Part shown: positions 2 through 38,675 of the stretch, in pieces
Position numbering within the stretch: the first letter of the stretch is position 1
How the letters are laid out: each line of letters opens with the position of its first letter
From: Candidatus Peregrinibacteria bacterium
GTDB taxonomy: Bacteria > Patescibacteriota > Gracilibacteria > Peribacterales > Peribacteraceae
Reading direction: 5' to 3'
DNA: 40,649 nucleotides
NCBI GenBank assembly: GCA_016201685.1
Contig: JACQCJ010000008.1
Coordinates: 1 to 40,649, forward strand
Position numbers and translations under genes: made by a program
The notes under the pieces: generated by a model
The model's database searches: none
Told to the model about the DNA's origin: nothing
The model's input: the letters and a program-made list of their open reading frames with translations, nothing else

Positions 2-589
2 GAATCGACCATCGCCGCGCTCGATGCGCTGGGGGACGACGTGCGGACGATCATCCTCGGCGGGCAGGACCGAGGGAACGATTTCACGGAACTGGGAAAG
101 AGGATTCTCGATTCGCGAATCGAGACCGTGATTCTCTTTCCAGGCAGTGGAGCGAGGATGCGGGAGGCGATTGCCGCCAATGCCTCCACCCCCGACCCCT
201 CCTCCGATGGAGGAGGAGGAAATGCTCCAATGATGGAAGTCACCCCTTTCTCCCCCGGAGAAAGGGGCTGGGGGATAGAGGAAAAAACAAAAAAAACAAA
301 CAACACGTCGCGCATTCGCTTCTTCGAAGCTTCCTCCATGCAACTAGCTGTCTCCATCGCCGTTCAAAAAACGAATAACGAAAAACGAAAAACGATACCG
401 ATCGTCCTCCTCTCCACCGCCTCCCCCAGCTACGGCATGTTCACGAATTTTGAGGAGAAGGGGGAACAGTTTCAGCACTGGATCCGTCCCCAACTTTCAC
501 TTTTGCAGGGCGCAGGAACTTCCCGTGGAGCTCGTAGCCGTCCTCGAAGACCTCGAGGATCTCGCCCTCCTTCCCGGGACCGACGGTGA
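2..589 (+). CDS. murD: UDP-N-acetylmuramoylalanine--D-glutamate ligase (MurD), C-terminal part; 5' end lies outside the window
   Basis: The frame is open from the window edge (ESTIAALDALGDDVRTIILGGQDRGNDF...). It shows the Mur-ligase C-terminal domain pattern and a MurD-type end, SPSYGMFTNFEEKGEQF. It carries a ~40-aa low-complexity insert (nt 183-304). Its 35-aa Arg-rich tail is antisense to grpE. Confidence 0.8.
   Translation, partial: ESTIAALDALGDDVRTIILGGQDRGNDFTELGKRILDSRIETVILFPGSGARMREAIAANASTPDPSSDGGGGNAPMMEVTPFSPGERGWGIEEKTKKTNNTSRIRFFEASSMQLAVSIAVQKTNNEKRKTIPIVLLSTASPSYGMFTNFEEKGEQFQHWIRPQLSLLQGAGTSRGARSRPRRPRGSRPPSRDRR
183..304 (+). repeat. GC-rich double-hairpin palindromic element, copy A (in frame inside murD)
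   Basis: Sequence: cctccacccccgacccctcctccGATggaggaggagg ... cccctttctccCCCggagaaaggggctggggg, followed by an A/C-rich tail aaaaaacaaaaaaaacaaacaac. It has the same module order as copies at 19658-19775 and 21083-21169 and the same termini as 15625-15778. Confidence 0.75.
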
Positions 590-15624: not shown

Positions 15625-15778
15625 TGTTTGTGTTGGTGTTTTGTAGGTGACCTCACCCCCTGGCCCCCTCTCCTGATCTTGGACTCTTCTTTTCATCAGA
15701 GCGTCTGCACGTTTCGCTCGTCCCCAGGACAGGAGAGGGGTTGGGGGTGAGGTCACACAAAAAACAACATACAAAACA
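15625..15778. repeat. GC-rich palindromic element, copy D (intergenic, ~50-bp terminal inverted repeats)
   Basis: The left end is tgtttgtgttggtgttttgtaggtgacctcaccccctggccccctctcctg. The reverse complement of the right end is tgttttgtatgttgttttttgtgtgacctcacccccaacccctctcctg. The core arms are 15647-15675 and 15730-15756, and the A/C-rich tail is present on both sides. Confidence 0.8.
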
Positions 15779-19643: not shown

Positions 19644-19657
19644 GGAATGGCACATTT

Positions 19658-19775
19658 CCTCTCCCCCCAACCCCCTCTCCGATGGAGAGGGGGAGCAATG
19701 TTCCAATGTTCCATTCCTCCCCTCCTCCACCGGAGGAGGGGCAGGGGGTGGAGGAAAACACAAACAACAAACAAG
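19658..19775 (+). repeat. GC-rich double-hairpin palindromic element, copy B (intergenic, between the convergent PBP gene and glmS)
   Basis: Sequence: cctctccccccaaccccctctccGATggagagggggagcaatgttccaatg...cccctcctccACCggaggaggggcagggggtggagg, followed by the tail aaaacacaaacaacaaacaag. It is colinear with copy A. Confidence 0.8.
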
Positions 19776-19786
19776 ACCCTTTTCTC

Positions 19787-19886
19787 GCTCAGGATGACAA
19801 TGTTCTTATTTCACAGTGACCGACTTCGCCATCCTTCGACAAGCTCAGGATGACGATGCCATCATTTCACAGTGACTGATTTCGCG
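19787..19886. repeat. Two 44-bp direct repeats at a 56-bp period: the glmS 3' end and a diverged duplicate
   Basis: R2 (19843-19886) contains the last glmS codons AKSVTVK plus TGA. R1 (19787-19830) is about 36/44 identical and on the minus strand also reads AKSVTVK plus TAA. Confidence 0.7.
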
Positions 19887-21718
19887 AGGTTGCGTGGCAT
19901 ATCAGGGTCCTTCCCTCGCTTCACCGCCAAAAAGTACGCGAGCACTTGGATGGGGATGATGTTCACGATCGCCTGGGCGGCCCCGGCGTCGGGGGCTTTG
20001 ATCCATTCATCGAAGAGGTCGTGACGCTCGGGTGACACACCGATGATCGCAGCACCCCGCGCCTTGAGTTCCATCGCGTTGTTCAACATGTCCTGCGTCA
20101 CTTCGTCATTGCCGATGAGGGCGATGCACGGCGTTCCCTGCTCGATCAACGCGATCGGGCCGTGCTTGAGCTCTCCTCCCGCGAATCCCTCCGCGTGCAC
20201 GTAGCTCACTTCCTGGATCTTGATCGCGCTCTCGAGGGCCATCGGGTAGTTCCAGCTCTTGCCAATGATGTAGAGGTCTTCCTCATCCTTGATGTGCTCG
20301 GCCAGATCTCGGAGTCGCTCGACGTAGCGCGGGTTCAACATGTCGTTGATCTTCGCGCAGGTTTCGAGGAGCAGCGTCCTGCCCTCCCGGAGTTTGTCCG
20401 CAAGCGCGTACGCGATGAGGAGGAGCACGGCGAGTTGCCCCGTCAACGCTTTCGTCGAGGCCACCGCGCGCTCCGGTCCGGCATTGATGAGGAGCATCGC
20501 ATCCGCCTCCCGCGCGATCGTCGATCCCTCCACGTTCACTATCGCGAGCACCTTGGATCCCTTCGCCTTCGCCACGCGCATCGCCTCGAGCACGTCCGCC
20601 GTCTCCCCGCTCTGGCTCACGACGATGAGGAGGCTCTCGGGTTTGAGGAAGTGATGGTAGAGCTTGAACTCGCTCGCCGGCGCGAAGTTCACGTGCTTCT
20701 CCGCGATCACGGAGAAGAAGTACTCCGCCGCCATGCACGCCTTGCCAGCCGTGCCGCATCCCACGAGGAACGTCCCTTTTGCCTCCCGGATCGCTTTCGC
20801 GACTTTGAGAATCTGCTCTTCGGACTGATTCACGGCCCGCGCGATGCTCTCCTTCTGATCCATGATTTCTTTGAGCATGTAGTGCTCGAAATCCCCCTTG
20901 TGCGCCTGTTCGATGGACCACGTGATCTCGATCTCCCGCTTTGGGCGTTCGTCTCCCGTCTGGATGTCCGAGAAGAAGATGCCCTTGCCGTCGGTGACGA
21001 CCATCTCGCCGTCGTCGAGGTACTGGACGGTGCGCGTGTGCGAAAGGAAGGCGGGAATGTCGGAGGCGATAAAGTACCCATTGACCTCCATCCTCCGGCT
21101 CCTTCCTCCACGGGAGGAAGGAGAGGTCTCCCCTCCTCCTCCGGAGGAGGGGTTGGGGGTGGAGGAATGTTCCACTCCGACAATCAACGGCGATCCTGTT
21201 CTCGCTGCAACCAACGTATTCGACTCCGTATGGAGTGCGAGAATGGCGTAGCGGCCCTTGAAGCGCAGGCACGCAGCGCGCACCGCCGCGGCAAAGTCCT
21301 TGGTCCGGCGGTACTCCTCTTCGATCAAATGCGGAATGACCTCGGTGTCGGTCTGCGAAAGGAACGTGTGTCCTTTCTTCTGGAGATCCTTGCGAATGGC
21401 CTCGTAATTTTCCACGATGCCATTGTGGATCACGGCGATCGTCCCGTCGCAGCTCAGGTGCGGGTGCGCGTTGATCTGCGTCACGCCCCCGTGCGTGGCC
21501 CAGCGCGTGTGCGCGATGGCGAAGCCGCAGTCATGATCGAATTCGCTGCTGTCCACATTCCCGATCCGGCCGATGTCCTTCTTCACGTGCAATGCCCCGC
21601 CGTCCTTGCAGGCCACTCCCCACGAATCGTACCCGCGGTACTCGAGGTTCTTGAGACCTTCGACCACGAGCGTCCCCGCATTCCTCCGGTCTCCCACATA
21701 CCCAAAGATACCGCACAT
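19862..21718 (-). CDS. glmS: Glutamine--fructose-6-phosphate aminotransferase (isomerising)
   Basis: N-terminal MCGIFGYVG (Cys nucleophile), two SIS domains and a C-terminal NLAKSVTVK. It carries a ~29-aa in-frame insert in the glutaminase domain. Confidence 0.95.
   Translation of the reverse strand: MCGIFGYVGDRRNAGTLVVEGLKNLEYRGYDSWGVACKDGGALHVKKDIGRIGNVDSSEFDHDCGFAIAHTRWATHGGVTQINAHPHLSCDGTIAVIHNGIVENYEAIRKDLQKKGHTFLSQTDTEVIPHLIEEEYRRTKDFAAAVRAACLRFKGRYAILALHTESNTLVAARTGSPLIVGVEHSSTPNPSSGGGGETSPSSRGGRSRRMEVNGYFIASDIPAFLSHTRTVQYLDDGEMVVTDGKGIFFSDIQTGDERPKREIEITWSIEQAHKGDFEHYMLKEIMDQKESIARAVNQSEEQILKVAKAIREAKGTFLVGCGTAGKACMAAEYFFSVIAEKHVNFAPASEFKLYHHFLKPESLLIVVSQSGETADVLEAMRVAKAKGSKVLAIVNVEGSTIAREADAMLLINAGPERAVASTKALTGQLAVLLLIAYALADKLREGRTLLLETCAKINDMLNPRYVERLRDLAEHIKDEEDLYIIGKSWNYPMALESAIKIQEVSYVHAEGFAGGELKHGPIALIEQGTPCIALIGNDEVTQDMLNNAMELKARGAAIIGVSPERHDLFDEWIKAPDAGAAQAIVNIIPIQVLAYFLAVKRGKDPDMPRNLAKSVTVK
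21083..21169 (-). repeat. GC-rich double-hairpin palindromic element, copy C (in frame inside glmS)
   Basis: On the coding strand: cctccacccccaacccctcctccggaggaggagg ... ctccttcctccCGTggaggaaggag. It encodes HSSTPNPSSGGGGETSPSSRGGRSRRMEV at the position where E. coli GlmS (from memory) has only GLGMGENFIASD. Confidence 0.7.
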
Positions 21719-21772: not shown

Positions 21773-21845
21773 AATTGCGAGTTGCAAGTGGCGAATTGCG
21801 AATTCTGGTTATTGCTTCGCAACTCGCAATTCGCCCTTCGCAATT
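21773..21845. repeat. Word-repeat hairpin H1 (AATTGCGA words) in the divergent glmS / ORF-21934 promoter region
   Basis: ggcgaattgcga (21790-21801) pairs perfectly with tcgcaattcgcc (21824-21835). aattgcga (21773-21780) pairs perfectly with tcgcaatt (21838-21845). An extended -10-like TGCTATACT follows at 21878-21886. Confidence 0.7.
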
Positions 21846-21933
21846 GGTCAGGGAGCCTTTCGTTAAAGCTCAAATTCTGCTATACTTTCCTGATTCATGG
21901 ACTTTCCCCGAATTCGGAGTACCATCCGTTCCA

Positions 21934-22407
21934 ATGCGTACCGCCACACGCTCCGCAGCAAAGAAGAAATTCCCTTCCTCCTCTGTTATGCCGCATGTGA
22001 TGTTCCTGACGAAGGATGAGCAGAAGCTCTTCTCGAAACTCCCTTCTTCTTTGCAGGAGGGGTGGGAGGTAAAGGAGGAGATGCTGACGTTTGATGATTC
22101 GGACGAACGCCGACGCATGAGGATTGCCGTGATGCATCTGCATGATCCCAAATTACTCTCATTCCAAGAGAAAGCAGGAACAATCACAAATGCTGAGGAG
22201 TTGTTCAAACTCGCTGGAAAAATCGACCTGACGAAAGTGCAGGAAAGCGACTTGGCGGAGATCTACTTCGCCCTCGGCCCCTCAGGCATTTCCATGTTTG
22301 TCATTCCTCTTCTCGAGGAAGCACAGTCCGATGACAAAGTAGAATCTGTCGCTGCCCTCACACATGTTCGGCACGCTCTCCTGGAATCCATGCAGCCCGT
22401 TTCCTAA
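21934..22407 (+). CDS. Hypothetical protein (~157 aa)
   Basis: ORF with coding-like composition. It is the first gene of a tightly spaced same-strand trio. The start is uncertain (ATG 21934 or 21988). No family recognised. Confidence 0.55.
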   Translation: MRTATRSAAKKKFPSSSVMPHVMFLTKDEQKLFSKLPSSLQEGWEVKEEMLTFDDSDERRRMRIAVMHLHDPKLLSFQEKAGTITNAEELFKLAGKIDLTKVQESDLAEIYFALGPSGISMFVIPLLEEAQSDDKVESVAALTHVRHALLESMQPVS

Positions 22408-23035: not shown

Positions 23036-26000
23036 ATGCCGTTGGATCAGCTGAAAGAAAGTGCAGAGAACGATTCGCCGAAAGAATTGGCGCGACTTGC
23101 TGATGAAGTGCTGCGATTGTCCGGATATGTTGAAGGTCCCTTGAATTCTGGAAAGAACCGGCTGCCGCTCATCGCAACGCCGGAATGGAAAGTGTGGGCT
23201 GAGGAATCGCCGCGACCAATTAATGGCACAGAACTCTTTCAAAAAGCAGATCCTTTGGAAAAACTTGTTCTCTCTCCGAATGCTACAAGTTTCGCCAATG
23301 TAGTTCAGTATGCATTCTTGCAGTTTGTTGGCGACTCAACGCAGCTTGAGCAGAAGTCCCGAGATGTAGAACTCTTGAAAGACGTCAATCTCAAGAAGAT
23401 TCTGTGGGTTTTCGAAGAAGGAATGCTCTTTGACTTCGTCAGCACGGTCAAAAAGTATGCGGAATACTGCGAGACCCACCAATCGACTCTTGGCGAAGCG
23501 CGAAATAAAGGTTGGGAAAGGGAAGTGAAGAGTATTTTGACAAACTTAAAAGCAGTGCTTCCAAAGATTGCCATTGCCTTGCAAATCAATTATGTCGAAC
23601 AGACCGCAGGTCTCGCTCAGAAACAGAATGACCCGAACCGCGCTGCGAAGATGAAACAAAATTCGGGTGATCTTCGCAAAGAACTACTCAAAATCACAGG
23701 CAAGGAAACGGTGAAACTCAAGGTCGATGGCAAAGAAGAAGATATTTCCATCAGCCAAGACATTTCACCCGAGCAACTCGAAAAAGCCCTTTGGGAATGG
23801 GATCGACAATTGCGCGATACACTCGGAACGCATGTACCGTACGAAGTGAAAGCGGATTACTTCGGCAAGAGAATGGAGAAACTATTCCAAGAGATTGCGA
23901 AATACACCAATACGGAACAATTTATCTTCGGGAAAGAGAATCCGCAGATGCGACAAACGCGCATCGCACACGCGATGTACGGAACGATGGTCATGAAACA
24001 TTTGCATGAGGTGACTGATCAGATCTTTCCAACGGAGAAGGATGGCAAGAGGGTCCCCGTTTCCGTCGAGCGCATTGATGAATTATCCCGCACGCTGGAA
24101 AAAATGGACGGGGCATGGCAGGAGTACGCTCCCGCAATTGTTGGATTTCAGCTCGATACGACGTCAATGCTCTATCTGATGGGACAAATGGGTCCGTATG
24201 TCAGACAAGCTGTTGAGGATTTGACCCCCGACGAAAAGGAATTTTATCGCAAGCACATGCTCCCGAAGGAAATCGTTGGTGAACTAGAAAAAAAACAACC
24301 CGAACTGAATATTGCACATCTCATTCAATATACATCTCTTCTTCAGAAGGACCTGACAGCGAAAGTTGGTCAGGCTCAAGCCTTGGATACGCTTGTCACG
24401 GGCATGGAAGAATCCATCCTCAATACGATCATTCAAGGTCTCAACGACGTAAAAATCACGGCAATAGATGTGACATGGTGGTTACCAGGTAAAGCTCTTG
24501 ATCTTGTGAACCTCTCGCGATTGAAACCTGAGGATGTTCGCAGAGTGCAGCAGATTGCGGCGTTGTACAGCAGGCTCACAGCGATGAAAGAGCGCGTTGT
24601 GCGGGGCCGCGAGAAGATTCGAAATACGAAGAAAGCTCTCCAAGAGGCGGCAAAGCTTTCCCAAGAAACGCTCCAGAAAATGGAGAAGAAACTCGCGTCG
24701 GAGGGCCAGAGACAAGTGACGCAAGCAGATCTGCAGGATGTTCGTCTGATGAACCAACGTGTGATGGCAGCAACCAATTATCTCGTGGATATGAATGCCG
24801 ATTTGACGACCATGATGATCTTCAATGCCTTGGGCTCCAGTGGATACGCGAATAAGCACGATCTCAGTGTGTGGACTGCTATCGAAATTGCACCATTCTA
24901 CGATTGGCTATTAATGGGAGGTTGGGGTGGGCGCGCGGTGACAGAGACTCCTGGTGCATTACTTCGCGGCACCGCGCGCCTTGTCGGAGCCGTCGGTGGA
25001 AAAATTCCCGGCTCCAAACTTGCGGCAAAACTTATCGGAAAGATTCCAGGTGCTACCAAGTTTGGCAATGCTCTTAATTCGGTGACATATGGCCCTGGCT
25101 ACATCGGGCGCGCATATCAGTATACAAGTCCTTCCCATTTCGTGGGACGAGTGGTAAACGAGAGACGGCAATTAGCGAATAGCGCCAATTCAGCGGCTGC
25201 ACGTTCTTTGCATGAATTATCATTAGATAAAGCTGGACGTATTGGCCTTTCAGAGCGTGCAATGGCGCTGGAATCTTCACTGAAATTCGATCCATCGAAG
25301 CTCACTGCCGAAGCGAAGAGTGCAATCGGTGATGCTATTTGGAATGCTCATGATATCGAGATGACTGGTCCGAAATGGACGTACAAGGAGTTGCGGGCAA
25401 AGATCGATATACTCAAAGGAGCAGGGCTTTCGAAGGATCAGGCATTTTTCCTCGTGAAAAATGGTTTCTGTGGCGATTTCACGGTCGAGGAAATTGCTGC
25501 GATGTTGCAGAAGAACGTTGGTCCTCAGGCCGCAGAGGAGTTCCTTGTATCGGCTCAAAAATTATTGATGAGTGCAGAGACAGCGAACATTATGGCCAAG
25601 CTCTCCATCGGTGCCGCTGCCATTGGAGAGGGCATCGCATTGCGATCGAGCCTCAATGATCTGGCCGACCAAATGAATCGCATCACCAAAGTAAAAGAAC
25701 AGATGCATCAGACACTGATCGGCTTGGGTTTCATCTACGATGCAAAAACCGAGACATATATGAATGAAGAGGCGGGCGTGAAGGTCTCACTCCAGCAGCT
25801 ACAGAAACCACTCGACGTCACAACCCAGCCGGATCTTCTCCGCAGCATCGGTCATGGCGCCAACCTCACGGCAATTCTTGGTGGAGGAGCTGCGCTGTAC
25901 TTGGGTGCGGAGATCGCGTTGGGGCCTGCGGGAATTGCGATTGCCGCCGTCGGGGTGACGGTCGAAGTCGTCGCGTCCGCCATTCGGAATCGTCAACACA

Positions 26001-28450
26001 GGCAACTGATCGCACAATGGCCGGCGTGGTTGCTTGCAGCGATGGGCGGCGCGAAAGTCCTCGGCAGAACGGAATACGACATGATCACAAACGCGTCTTC
26101 CTGGACGCTGATCCCGGAGAACGAGCGAACGATGAAGGATGTCCGAGACAAGAATTACTTCATGCTCTTCAGTTCGGAACTCGCTGAACGGGCTCGCCCT
26201 CTGTACGACCGCATCTTCCGCAGCAAGAATGATCCGCGCAGCATAGAGGATTTCTTCCGCGGGGACTTCAGGACCGTCACGCTCCCGTATCTTTTCCTCT
26301 GCCTCGCGCGCGCGGCGCAGAAGATGGGCGTGCCCCCACAACAACTGGATGAGTTGAGGCAAGGCAGGATTGATACCGGTCTTGGGATTCTTCCGCGAGC
26401 CGTCTGCGAGACGCTCGTTCGACAAGCGTGTCTGGAAGCAGCAGTGTTCACACTGCAAGATTTCGAGCAGATGCGCCTGAACCGACTTCTCTACGCGCGG
26501 AAGGACTATGAAGATCAGCCGGAATCGGAGGAATACAAGCGCCTGTCACGCGCAGTTGAACTTCAGAGTCAGAAGAAAATTTTCGGGAAAACGATGGGAG
26601 AACTCGTCGGGCAGAAGTCGAGGCTCGATGACCCCAGCGTCCCTCCAACGCTTGCCCGCTGCATTCTGCGCGACCTGCAGCGTCAGCTCGAGAATGGAGG
26701 AACGATGACACTCACTGGTCTTTCATCCAAGTATCCCGGTCTTCCCGATACTCTCGATTTTGGCGCATCGGATACGCTCGCGAGTCTCTGCATCAGCGAC
26801 CCGGCTCTTCGTTATAATCTCAAGAAAATCGGCCCGAAGACCGTGGAAGAGCAGCACGCCATGCCGCTCTTTGGAACGGCGTTCGCCCCAAACGAACCCG
26901 AGCGCATCGTTCACCGCGAAACGGTCAATGTTCTCCTCCGTACCGCAACGGGAAAGGAAGACGGGAAACTTCCGGAGAATGCAAGCGAGTACGCTACGCA
27001 CGACGTTCTGACGCGTGCTGCTGTTGCACTGTTTCAGAAAGAGCCTCAGAAACTTGAGGAATTTCGCATGCTCTCAAGTGCTTCCCCATTCCACTATTTC
27101 CGTGGTGAGGGAGATCCGTTGCCATTCGAGGGCGCAGCACAGAAACAAGCATTCCAAGGCGAAAAGCTCGTCGCGATCTTCCAGCAACAGAGAGTCCTCA
27201 CCGATGGCAACACACTCGCGCTCTTCACGTGCGTCTACGGCGATTCCGGAAATCCGCGAGACATAATCGTCTCGCAAGAAGCGCAGGAAAAAATCCAGTA
27301 CGTCAGCGGGCACCATCGCTTCGAGAACAAGGCGCTCTCCCTCTTGCCGGATCTCACGGAATCCTCCGCAAAAATGAAGGAAGAAATGAAGGAACGTCGC
27401 GAGCCCGTGCGCGGCGAGCCCGAACACTTCATCGGCATTCCCGACATTCAGATGCTCTCCTCTCTCGGGCACACCGGTCAGTATCTTCTGGATCAGATTC
27501 AATCGACGGAAGCCTCGGAACGTGAACGAACGGAGATACGGGCGATGATCGATGCACTCCGCGGTGATAACCCCCCTCTTCCAACTCCGTCGCGCTACAG
27601 TAACCAAGAACTCCTTTTCTTTCCCGACGAGCTGCGTACTTCTCATAAGGAGCTCGGCGTGAAGTCCTTGCAAATCGAGAATCGTCGCACGGAATACATG
27701 ACAATGAAGAATCGTTTCCTTACCGAACTCCGCCAACGTGATTCTTCTCGTGGCCAAAGTACTGCTTCATCGTCGGAGATCGAGCAGATTCGCTCGCAGT
27801 ATGAGGAGATCCAAAGAGTTCGCAGTACGTATGAGGTCTCCGAGAAACAGTATCGGTCGGAAATCGAGAGTCTGCGGGAAAGTATTCTCGGCATGAAGAA
27901 TGTCACGAGCACGGCGTTGCGATCACTCAGTGCGCGGGAGCAATTTCAGAATCGTCTTGAGGCACAGCTTCCGAAAACCGGGCCGGGCGCTCTTTCGCTC
28001 CTTCCGACAAAATCCGCACAGGAAGATACGGCCGTTCGCGATACCCTCTTTCCAACCGAGAAACCGTACGTGGCAGTGAGCGGAAATCTCGACAAGCAAT
28101 CGGACATACCCGTTCTGCAGTCGATTCTTGCGATGCCTTCTCTCCCGCGCAAAAACCTTCTTGCCGTCTACATCGGCAAGGACTCGGATCCGAAGACAGG
28201 CGATCGTCTGTTGCTCGAATTGCTGTACAGCGAGGATGTGCGAGCGAATCCTCCCATACTGCAGCGACTGTCTCTCGGATGTCAGCACATCGATGGCCAA
28301 TGGGAAATTGGATTGCCGATCGCGAATGCGAGTCGATATCCAGTCGATCGGACTGAGCGAAAAGCGGATGCTGTCTTCAATCCTACTCTTCCGAATTACC
28401 TCGTATCCCTTGTGGATGCAGCGAGAGCGAAATTGTCGAAGCAGCCATGA
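23036..28450 (+). CDS. Giant hypothetical membrane protein, 1804 aa
   Basis: Uninterrupted 5.4-kb ORF. It has no signal peptide. Hydrophobic segments lie near nt 24870-24935 (VWTAIEIAPFYDWLLMGGWGG), 25861-25980 (NLTAILGGGAALYLGAEIALGPAGIAIAAVGVTVEVVASAI) and 26010-26060 (WPAWLLAAMGGAKVLG). It is otherwise helical and charged, with no recognisable domain. Confidence 0.85.
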   Translation: MPLDQLKESAENDSPKELARLADEVLRLSGYVEGPLNSGKNRLPLIATPEWKVWAEESPRPINGTELFQKADPLEKLVLSPNATSFANVVQYAFLQFVGDSTQLEQKSRDVELLKDVNLKKILWVFEEGMLFDFVSTVKKYAEYCETHQSTLGEARNKGWEREVKSILTNLKAVLPKIAIALQINYVEQTAGLAQKQNDPNRAAKMKQNSGDLRKELLKITGKETVKLKVDGKEEDISISQDISPEQLEKALWEWDRQLRDTLGTHVPYEVKADYFGKRMEKLFQEIAKYTNTEQFIFGKENPQMRQTRIAHAMYGTMVMKHLHEVTDQIFPTEKDGKRVPVSVERIDELSRTLEKMDGAWQEYAPAIVGFQLDTTSMLYLMGQMGPYVRQAVEDLTPDEKEFYRKHMLPKEIVGELEKKQPELNIAHLIQYTSLLQKDLTAKVGQAQALDTLVTGMEESILNTIIQGLNDVKITAIDVTWWLPGKALDLVNLSRLKPEDVRRVQQIAALYSRLTAMKERVVRGREKIRNTKKALQEAAKLSQETLQKMEKKLASEGQRQVTQADLQDVRLMNQRVMAATNYLVDMNADLTTMMIFNALGSSGYANKHDLSVWTAIEIAPFYDWLLMGGWGGRAVTETPGALLRGTARLVGAVGGKIPGSKLAAKLIGKIPGATKFGNALNSVTYGPGYIGRAYQYTSPSHFVGRVVNERRQLANSANSAAARSLHELSLDKAGRIGLSERAMALESSLKFDPSKLTAEAKSAIGDAIWNAHDIEMTGPKWTYKELRAKIDILKGAGLSKDQAFFLVKNGFCGDFTVEEIAAMLQKNVGPQAAEEFLVSAQKLLMSAETANIMAKLSIGAAAIGEGIALRSSLNDLADQMNRITKVKEQMHQTLIGLGFIYDAKTETYMNEEAGVKVSLQQLQKPLDVTTQPDLLRSIGHGANLTAILGGGAALYLGAEIALGPAGIAIAAVGVTVEVVASAIRNRQHRQLIAQWPAWLLAAMGGAKVLGRTEYDMITNASSWTLIPENERTMKDVRDKNYFMLFSSELAERARPLYDRIFRSKNDPRSIEDFFRGDFRTVTLPYLFLCLARAAQKMGVPPQQLDELRQGRIDTGLGILPRAVCETLVRQACLEAAVFTLQDFEQMRLNRLLYARKDYEDQPESEEYKRLSRAVELQSQKKIFGKTMGELVGQKSRLDDPSVPPTLARCILRDLQRQLENGGTMTLTGLSSKYPGLPDTLDFGASDTLASLCISDPALRYNLKKIGPKTVEEQHAMPLFGTAFAPNEPERIVHRETVNVLLRTATGKEDGKLPENASEYATHDVLTRAAVALFQKEPQKLEEFRMLSSASPFHYFRGEGDPLPFEGAAQKQAFQGEKLVAIFQQQRVLTDGNTLALFTCVYGDSGNPRDIIVSQEAQEKIQYVSGHHRFENKALSLLPDLTESSAKMKEEMKERREPVRGEPEHFIGIPDIQMLSSLGHTGQYLLDQIQSTEASERERTEIRAMIDALRGDNPPLPTPSRYSNQELLFFPDELRTSHKELGVKSLQIENRRTEYMTMKNRFLTELRQRDSSRGQSTASSSEIEQIRSQYEEIQRVRSTYEVSEKQYRSEIESLRESILGMKNVTSTALRSLSAREQFQNRLEAQLPKTGPGALSLLPTKSAQEDTAVRDTLFPTEKPYVAVSGNLDKQSDIPVLQSILAMPSLPRKNLLAVYIGKDSDPKTGDRLLLELLYSEDVRANPPILQRLSLGCQHIDGQWEIGLPIANASRYPVDRTERKADAVFNPTLPNYLVSLVDAARAKLSKQP

Positions 28451-28530: not shown

Positions 28531-28785
28531 ATGCCCCTCACCCTCTCCGCCATCAAAGCCGCCAAGCAAGCCGAAGCGCGCCGCATCCGGCGCCAGCCGT
28601 TCAAGACGCAGCTCAAGACGACGATGCGCGCTTTCATCGATCTTATTAAGGATGGGAAGAAGGATGAAGCCGCCAAGATCCTCCCGCGCGTGTACAAGGT
28701 GATCGATACCGCAGCGAAGAAGCACATTCTGCATCCCAAGAACGCCGCGCGGAAGAAGTCGAGGATGGCGAGACTCTTGAAATGA
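28531..28785 (+). CDS. rpsT: 30S ribosomal protein S20
   Basis: 84-aa basic protein MPLTLSAIKAAKQAEARRIRRQPFKTQLKT...AAKKHILHPKNAARKKSRMARLL, the typical S20 pattern. Confidence 0.92.
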   Translation: MPLTLSAIKAAKQAEARRIRRQPFKTQLKTTMRAFIDLIKDGKKDEAAKILPRVYKVIDTAAKKHILHPKNAARKKSRMARLLK

Positions 28786-28884
28786 AAAATGTAGAATGAA
28801 GAATGTAAAATGCGGAAGTAATTTTGTTGTCTGAGTCGCAATCGCATTTTTCATTCTACATTTTACATTCTACATTTTTCATGC
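28779..28884. repeat. Word-repeat hairpin H2 (ATGTAGAATG / ATGTAAAATG words) bridging the rpsT stop and the ruvX start
   Basis: 28782-28798 pairs over 17 bp with 28866-28882. Inner pairings are 28807-28814 with 28843-28850, and 28800-28805 with 28852-28857. The rpsT TGA (28783-28785) lies in the left arm and the ruvX ATG (28881-28883) lies in the right arm. Confidence 0.75.
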
Positions 28885-38514: not shown

Positions 38515-38675
38515 CAATGAAGGAAGAATGAAGGAAGAATGATGGTGAGATGGTTGGATGGTTCGCAAGCGATTCTGAAGAATTCATGACAGGGTCTGGT
38601 CTTGCCTGGCAACCATCTAGCCATCGAACCATGTAACCATTTATTTCTACTTCCTACCAATTCCATGAATTTTCA
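38515..38675. repeat. Word-repeat hairpin H3 (AATGAAGGAAG x2 and GATGGT/ACCATC words) downstream of the lipoprotein gene
   Basis: A tandem AATGAAGGAAG lies at 38516-38526 and 38527-38537. The left arm gatggtgagatggttggatggttcg faces the right arm caaccatctagccatcgaaccatgtaaccat. For example, gatggttg (38549-38556) is the exact complement of caaccatc (38610-38617), and several pairing registers are possible. Confidence 0.65.

Follow-up and report, generated by a model that had tools for sequence, protein, structure and literature searches.

The window analysed here is a whole stretch of 40,649 nt from a Candidatus Peregrinibacteria bacterium (contig JACQCJ010000008.1). The element under study, copy C, is a short palindromic sequence located in frame within the glutaminase domain of glmS, an essential cell-wall gene that codes for glutamine--fructose-6-phosphate aminotransferase. 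Two other copies of the same family and a related element lie in the window (Table 1). The product of glmS starts with MCGIFGY, carries the Cys after Met1 of an Ntn glutaminase, contains the Pfam domains GATase_6/7 and two SIS domains, and resembles the solved GlmS structures over its full length (PDB 4amv/2j6h, E about 1e-106, the best being 5e-107 with phmmer). In the phmmer alignment its residues 1-182 and 215-617 pair with residues 1-183 and 188-608 of E. coli GlmS, and therefore about 28-29 residues have no counterpart in the E. coli enzyme. Copy C corresponds exactly to 29 codons at this gap, which read HSSTPNPSSGGGGETSPSSRGGRSRRMEV; its length is a multiple of three, it contains no stop codon, and the E. 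coli alignment resumes in frame past it, with the host protein conserved on either side. An in-frame insertion relative to E. coli GlmS had been proposed in a first-pass annotation of the window, and the alignment gap confirms it.

Table 1. Position of the palindromic elements, their parts and their host genes in the window
Feature	Position	Strand	Remarks
glmS (glutamine--fructose-6-phosphate aminotransferase, 618 aa)	19862..21718	-	open reading frame (ORF), Pfam and PDB match; host of copy C
Element copy C, short form, 87 nt	21083..21169	-	glmS codons H184-V212; hit by the family model in nhmmer at E = 6e-21
C-tract of copy C, CCTCCATCCTCCGG	21085..21098	+	imperfectly complementary to the G-tract; forms the outer stem of the folded DNA
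Hairpin 1 of copy C, CTCCTTCCTCC acg GGAGGAAGGAG	21099..21123	+	perfect 11-bp stem
Hairpin 2 of copy C, CCCCTCCTCC tcc GGAGGAGGGG	21130..21152	+	perfect 10-bp stem
G-tract of copy C, GGGGGTGGAGG	21155..21165	+	exact motif match
murD, 3' part (truncated where the window begins)	2..589	+	translation, PDB MurD matches; host of copy A
Element copy A (long form, A/C-tailed)	176..307	+	in frame in the murD C-terminal domain; peptide ANASTPDPSSDGGGGNAPMMEVTPFSPGERGWGIEEKTKKTNNT; family-model orientation minus, 287-180
Element copy B (long form, A/C-tailed)	19650..19776	+	intergenic, between the convergent PBP gene (stop 19643) and glmS (stop 19862)
Related element D	15625..15778	.	46-nt terminal inverted repeats including GT-/AC-rich tails; GGAGAGGGGTTGGGGGTGAGG module

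The GlmS model obtained with AlphaFold from a 120-sequence alignment has a mean pLDDT of 87 and a pTM of 0.85, and Foldseek superimposes it on E. coli GlmS 2J6H with TM-scores of 0.83/0.84, in agreement with the annotated view that the rest of the protein is intact. Residues 188-208 of the insert have pLDDT values below 50 and no secondary structure, and they are flanked by two strands, 179-184 and 212-218. According to this model, the insert is a disordered, fold-compatible surface loop at the tip of a β-hairpin in the glutaminase domain, and the remaining fold is preserved.

The same insertion, at the same codon, is found in JACOTD01 (locus L040), an independent metagenome-assembled genome (MAG) from another sample with about 90% DNA identity to the window, and the insertion is therefore older than the split of the two genomes. 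A contig of a third assembly (Logan) ends inside copy C. Together, the independent MAG and the Logan contig exclude, for practical purposes, that the segment is an assembly artefact. Comparison of the glmS flanks between the window and JACOTD01 gave dN 0.033 and dS 0.46, and an omega of 0.07 indicates strong purifying selection on glmS since the insertion. Judged from this sequence divergence, the gene has stayed functional with its added loop, as the annotation had supposed.

Structure of the element in glmS

In the orientation of the family model (+, 21082-21168), copy C consists of the C-tract, hairpin 1, a 6-nt linker, hairpin 2, the dinucleotide TT and the G-tract. The right arm of hairpin 2 and the G-tract form a 23-mer, at 21143-21165, that is the signature of the family. 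When folded as single-stranded DNA (ssDNA) copy C reaches -31.3 kcal/mol (z = -4.5), a value equalled by 0/200 shuffled sequences, and the mRNA of the gene strand reaches -56 kcal/mol. Copy C lacks the central spacer of roughly 25 nt and the A/C tail that are present in the long form. The absence of the tail had been correctly annotated; the conclusion drawn from it, that only a short form is tolerated at this site, is unproven. No site-specific size limit is shown, because the short form also lacks the spacer and recurs in the isoleucyl-tRNA synthetase (IleRS) gene of another Peribacteria MAG (L032), and MurD tolerates the long form. In hairpin 1, the copies of glmS and L032 differ in both arms (C/G to T/A) with the pairing retained.

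On the gene strand, the element (21083-21125) gives the glmS mRNA the sequence AAGGAG-N7-AUG at Met210 (MEVNGYF...), which would make a good Shine-Dalgarno and start codon within glmS. This AUG was taken as the start by the gene caller on the shortened Logan contig (P0122). The murD copy carries a comparable arrangement, GGAGGAGGAGGAAATG.

A dispersed family of palindromic elements

Exact copies of the 23-mer GGAGGAGGGGNNGGGGGTGGAGG are found at three sites of the window (murD, the PBP/glmS spacer and glmS), versus 0.00 expected. This recurrence and the score of copy C against the family model uphold the attribution of the extra 29 residues to a copy of a palindromic element with two perfect hairpins. 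The long form is arranged as a GT-rich tail, the C-tract, hairpin 1, the spacer, hairpin 2, the G-tract and an AC-rich tail. Element D, which is intergenic, with a FecR-like gene on one side and a gene for a T2SSE ATPase on the other, is a variant related to copies A-C that escapes detection by the family model; its fold reaches -41.9 kcal/mol (z = -6.95).

A family profile was built from 12 copies and used in an nhmmer search of Peregrinibacteria sequence. The search recovered 15 distinct full copies, three of them in the window (A-C) and 12 in the loci searched, two of which (both in L040) are the orthologues of copies B and C. Full elements are present in nine contigs of JACOTD01 and in three more Peregrinibacteria/Peribacteria-type MAGs, one of them deposited as 'bacterium'. 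A diverged copy with intact hairpins occupies the same glmS/PBP intergenic site in L112, the contig of a GlmS orthologue (P0002) with 80% identity. The short form is a subfamily, also met in L032, and a metagenome scan added 12 loci of a TTCCTCC-hairpin subfamily. The other copies examined appear intergenic, and many of them abut stop codons. The elements are thus small and multicopy, have terminal inverted repeats and no ORF of their own, as do MITEs (miniature transposable elements with inverted repeats), and a single family has members inside several genes of unrelated function as well as between genes, as is the case for the Rickettsia palindromic elements (RPEs).

The long form of JACOTD01 is nested in a further inverted pair (GGAGAGGGGA ... 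TCCCCTCTCC), so that the palindrome extends beyond the GT/AC tails; this composite was seen at three loci (L010:1190-1440, L035:60-300 and L056:930-1200). In the window, a degenerate module-like stretch at 22038-22077, CTCCCTTCTTCTTTGCAGGAGGGGTGGGAGGTAAAGGAG, is 63% identical to the module and lies within a hypothetical ORF (21775-22407); either decay of a former copy or mere chance could explain it.

Rfam gave no match at the gathering score in the window, and its sub-threshold hits, in L008 and L040, were to miRNA hairpins and concerned the palindromes only. The phage collection contained no match to the element. At the protein level, an exhaustive phmmer search with the copy-B peptide against 1.84 billion representatives returned three unrelated low-complexity matches, and a query of the concatenated insert peptides (58 aa) returned three word-sharing candidates, none of which scored; a protein-level census of hosts is a dead end for peptides of such low complexity. 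Literature searches on palindromic repeats in Peregrinibacteria and on in-frame repeats in the Candidate Phyla Radiation (CPR) yielded no description of this family. The family is previously undescribed, and the kind of event, in-frame insertion of a palindromic repeat, is already known.

In-frame copies in other genes

MurD aligns to the solved MurD structures on both sides of about 42 additional residues, and its copy (180-287) shares orientation and frame with that of glmS (ASTPDPSSDGGGG vs SSTPNPSSGGGG), as annotated. In the IleRS of L032 the extra segment FSSTPNPSSKGGGGSPFLPWRKGPGDGGI is found between YAQQHYPF and FPADFIAEGIDQTRGWFY. In JACOTD01, half an element adds 13 residues to TrmD, and UvrC probably holds one in-frame copy, at a locus that is cut upstream and has no confirmation against a solved structure. 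In all five genes (GlmS, MurD, IleRS, TrmD and the probable UvrC) the module is read as S-T-P-x-P-S-S-x-G-G-G, and in all five the intragenic copy has a length that is a multiple of three and uses the same frame; were length free, the chance of this would be about (1/3)^5 = 0.4%. The constant length class and the shared frame indicate selection on the translated product. Copy A is oriented in such a way that its tail reads as the hydrophilic EEKTKKTNNT and not as a stretch of Cys/Val/Phe. In total, about 17 copies are counted in Peregrinibacteria, and at least 4-5 of these keep the frame of a host gene.

Some of these host genes have further peculiarities. Downstream of copy A, murD contains a second in-frame repeat at 367-395, (AAAAACG) x4.1, read approximately as KTNNEKRKT, within a stretch that has no counterpart in solved MurD. 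The IleRS of L032 (1-3915, minus) is about 1300 aa long and also contains two internal His_Phos_1 (histidine-phosphatase) domains, and in the UvrC of JACOTD01 (L007:2-2005) a GNAT acetyltransferase domain is embedded in the RNase H-like endonuclease region. In a Patescibacteria MAG, RsmG (GidB; L071:470-1384) carries an inserted DUF559 endonuclease-like domain and the element module in a different frame.

The GlmS turn in related proteins

The 120 best GlmS relatives, all Peregrinibacteria-like, have a basic length of 590-591 aa, and none of them shares the insert sequence of the window (119 orthologues compared for the insert), the outcome of the comparison with orthologues that had been suggested for it. 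The turn itself, between GSPLIVGV and GYFIASD, contains extra residues in 32/120, in the form of unrelated inserts of 5-39 residues; eight orthologues have 14-30 extra residues, and the loop reaches up to about 39. At the DNA level, six of these inserts (L112:10550-10663, L114:10547-10663, L116, L129, L130 and L131) measure 69-117 nt and differ from one another and from the element of the window. Five of the six consist of tandemly repeated heptamers or 9-mers (CAGCAAT x3 with its inverse and CTCGAAG x4 are examples), and in three the palindromic character is significant (z = -2.6, -3.4 and -3.7). No second copy of the insert was found within ±10 kb in L112, L114 and L116; L129-L131 had shorter flanks and were left unchecked. 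The turn of GlmS is thus a permissive insertion hotspot filled with lineage-specific sequences, and among the loop inserts only that of the window demonstrably belongs to a multicopy family.

Conservation of the hairpins

Between the window and JACOTD01, copy C agrees at 80/81 positions, compared with flanks that are 89.9% identical (binomial P about 0.001); the dS of copy C is 0.043 vs 0.46 in the flanks, about 10-fold fewer synonymous changes. Only 5% of the 87-nt windows of glmS are as conserved. The sole difference falls in the 3-nt loop of hairpin 2. Copy B is identical to its JACOTD01 orthologue at 104/105 positions, and one change in a stem is matched on both arms, that is, compensatory. 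The pattern extends to the 13 aligned copies (12 independent ones and one orthologue of copy B): neither hairpin ever departs from perfect Watson-Crick pairing, no G-T pair occurs, at least six different stem sequences are used in hairpin 1, and the 3-nt loops vary freely. Pairs were counted by direct detection of the hairpins, as automatic alignment mis-registers hairpin 1 between subfamilies. As a lead from these sequence comparisons, a constraint acting at the DNA level, or correction of one arm by the other, would be preferred to selection on an RNA structure.

The terminal module in other phyla

An exact-pattern scan of species-representative genomes gave at least 111 loci (L001-L111) among the matches listed, and in 74 of these 111 the G-tract motif is preceded by a matching hairpin arm. 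The identical module, that is the CCCCTCCTCC hairpin, NN and GGGGGTGGAGG, is present in at least six phyla, with spacers and loop lengths that vary by lineage (examples are L017:2135-2255, L008:3130-3368, L005:130-280, L030 and L084). In Sphingomonas there are dozens per genome, with 2-nt loops, right after stop codons and in the order hairpin-G-tract...C-tract-hairpin; copies are also present, unannotated, in Sphingomonas plasmids. In a Polyangiales MAG the modules are the paired ends of an element of roughly 240 nt and have 15-nt loops. The loop has 36 nt in Kiritimatiellales, 12 nt in Fimbriimonadaceae, 2 nt in Prevotella and 3 nt in Patescibacteria.

Other repeats and neighbouring genes

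Next to the stop codon of glmS, a 56-nt direct duplication (19787-19885, 84% identical) repeats the last codons and the downstream sequence, giving a second 'SVTVK-stop' remnant past the real stop. The JACOTD01 orthologue lacks this duplication, and the extra segment contains the hairpin CATCCT-gagcttgtcga-AGGATG. Intergenic palindromes of another kind, made of tandemly arranged short repeats and their inverse, lie directly upstream of glmS (21773-21850, AATTGCG x4.6 with its inverse), upstream of ruvX (28780-28882, AATGTAG with CATTCTA) and upstream of recA (38516-38640, GATGGTTA with AACCATCT). Heptamer palindromes built of other heptamers are found in L114 (1385-1452 and 9840-9937), so that the architecture is common to these genomes and the sequence is not. 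The ORF adjoining glmS (23036-28450) codes for 1804 aa and has no Pfam match at E<=1e-4, and the syntenic position in L112 and L116 is also occupied by large unannotated proteins.

Comparison with known systems

In-frame palindromic elements in Rickettsia housekeeping genes were reportedly described by Ogata et al. in 2000. The RPEs are, like the present elements, short (about 100-150 bp) dispersed palindromic repeats found between genes and in frame in unrelated housekeeping genes of a small, host-dependent genome, and the added peptide is judged compatible with the fold (PMC10969869). There are also differences: the host is here a member of the CPR (Peregrinibacteria) and not of the Rickettsiales; the sequence is G+C-rich and homopurine/homopyrimidine, in contrast to the A+T-rich Rickettsia genome; there is a defined order of C-tract, two perfect hairpins of 10-11 bp with 3-nt loops, G-tract and GT/AC tails; and the terminal module is common to at least six phyla. 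By analogy, the element would work like an RPE, and since its composition makes homology unlikely, the likeness would be one of behaviour alone.

Copies A-C also fold as an inverted doublet of hairpin modules in one unit, which is the organization of REPINs. As described in PMC3116915, REP/REPIN sequences share with the present family the inverted doublet with a short spacer, the predicted folding as ssDNA, a frequent location just past stop codons and good conservation of the doublets. REPINs lie outside genes, whereas of the four copies in the window two are inside genes (murD and glmS), and others are in IleRS and TrmD; moreover, there is here no RAYT in the window and no GTAG-type 5' tetranucleotide, and the hairpins are perfect. 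Bacterial MITEs such as Correia, ERIC and BOX share the size below 300 bp, the terminal inverted repeats, the many copies, the lack of coding capacity and the occasional in-frame fusions, but for the family of the window neither a target-site duplication nor a parent insertion sequence with matching ends is demonstrated. With the cyanobacterial heptamer repeats (STRR) and small dispersed repeats there is a likeness in the 7-nt periodic tracts, here AAACAAC x2.9 in the A/C tail and GGGGTTG GGGGTGG in the G-tract, and in the heptamer palindromes, here elsewhere in the window and in the GlmS loops of relatives; that phylum is a different one, and the likeness is one of description. Among other classes considered, an intrinsic terminator was rejected, the U-rich tail being 5' of the hairpin and the A/C-rich tail 3', and an intein was rejected on size.

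Origin and maintenance of the glmS copy

We propose an insertion model for copy C, which we regard as probably correct: a non-autonomous palindromic element entered glmS at a turn that tolerates insertions, and its translation forms a disordered loop of a functional enzyme. In the model, the element arrived, by what would be a transposition-like insertion, at the turn of the β-hairpin in the glutaminase domain before the window genome and JACOTD01 diverged. The copy would have persisted because its length is a multiple of three, it is free of stop codons and its frame gives a flexible hydrophilic peptide rich in Ser/Thr/Pro/Gly. Reading through the insert would then produce the disordered surface loop, GlmS staying functional, and the in-frame copies seen today would be survivors of selection. 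The palindrome, in turn, may be kept perfect at the DNA level, by recognition of the hairpin as ssDNA or cruciform or by arm-to-arm correction, and not for an RNA or protein function.

Several observations weigh against the model. No empty-site allele was found, and the nearest other orthologues, whose proteins are about 80% identical, have inserts of their own. The 21 large ORFs of the window that were scanned include no transposase or RAYT, the window holds no autonomous parent, and the fetched loci contain neither such a gene flanked by modules nor an inverted pair of modules 0.7-3 kb apart, as expected of a parent element. The ends of the copies fade into mutually complementary GT/AC-rich (T-/A-rich) tails with no definable target-site duplication. 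Translation through the insert is something we infer, and since hardly any stop codon occurs in the six frames of the element, an open frame alone is little proof of it. Finally, the low divergence comes from just two orthologous comparisons, a number that weakens equally the explanation considered next.

That explanation, which is compatible with an origin by insertion, holds that the element is kept for a nucleic-acid function and that the glmS copy is a selected cis-element and not a parasite that is tolerated. We consider it unlikely, though it deserves attention. As candidate functions, the element might structure or stabilise the mRNA, offer a hairpin for a protein to bind, or supply the internal start at M210. 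It would account for the roughly 10-fold deficit of synonymous changes within the element, with the lone change in a loop, for the retention of a hairpin of copy B through a two-sided change, for the diverged copy whose hairpins remain intact at the same glmS/PBP site at just 80% GlmS identity, for the intergenic copies that abut stop codons, and for the conservation of hairpin and G-tract in at least six phyla. However, about 26 hairpins are all perfect Watson-Crick without one G-U/G-T pair, which points to a process at the DNA level and not to selection on RNA; the GT tail before the hairpin and the A/C tail after it are reversed with respect to an intrinsic terminator; Rfam has no match; and most GlmS orthologues do without the element. 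Local growth of the insert in a hypervariable loop, by tandem-repeat slippage and hairpin-templated synthesis and with no mobility, a route that the inserts of other lineages may have taken, is suggested by the unrelated inserts in 32/120 orthologues, by the tandem repeats (5/6) and palindromes (3/6) of the long inserts, none with another copy in the available flanks, and by the genome-specific heptamer palindromes common in the intergenic DNA of these genomes. It is nevertheless very improbable for copy C, whose sequence matches a multicopy family end to end and has a near-identical short form in a different gene and MAG (L032 IleRS), the same 80-nt sequence at unlinked loci being impossible by local growth.

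GC-rich palindromes are bypassed in some yeast mitochondria. Removal of the element from the mRNA, or its bypass by the ribosome as in mitochondrial byp or T4 gene 60, would leave the protein unchanged, and the very stable structure of the gene strand might favour it; but all five intragenic copies keep to a multiple of three and to one reading frame, and the tail-bearing copy is oriented towards the hydrophilic reading, features that leave this possibility slightly behind even local growth. Mis-joining of a repeat into glmS during assembly is the least credible of the explanations: repeats do break assemblies, and the Logan contig ends within the element, yet an independent MAG with diverged flanks has the insertion at the same codon, and both the frame and the downstream protein are intact. 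The insertion model for copy C is thus retained. A bolder extension of it, which we put forward as speculation with a low chance of being right, is that the 33-nt module (CCCCTCCTCC/GGAGGAGGGG 10-bp hairpin plus NN-GGGGGTGGAGG) might be the recognition unit of an uncharacterised cross-phylum system of mobilisation or maintenance acting on ssDNA or cruciforms. Such a system, in the same speculative vein, might keep the hairpins perfect, constrain the copies beyond synonymous sites and, in streamlined CPR genomes, routinely invade and remodel loops of essential proteins. If this were true, the glmS copy would be the product of a new class of element-host relationship and not a dead MITE.

Implications

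The colonisation of housekeeping genes by in-frame palindromic elements has been treated largely as a peculiarity of Rickettsia, and the case of the Peregrinibacteria, where the element is an unrelated one, suggests that genomes of small size and host-dependent life undergo it generally. Inserts of this kind split gene calls, break assemblies and inflate the apparent divergence of proteins in CPR genomes. The low divergence of the copies, their perfect hairpins and the presence of the module in at least six phyla make the family a good candidate for tracing the machinery that mobilises or maintains it. For the organisms themselves, such inserts may supply variation of loops and linkers in essential enzymes, and the same loop of GlmS indeed varies from lineage to lineage.

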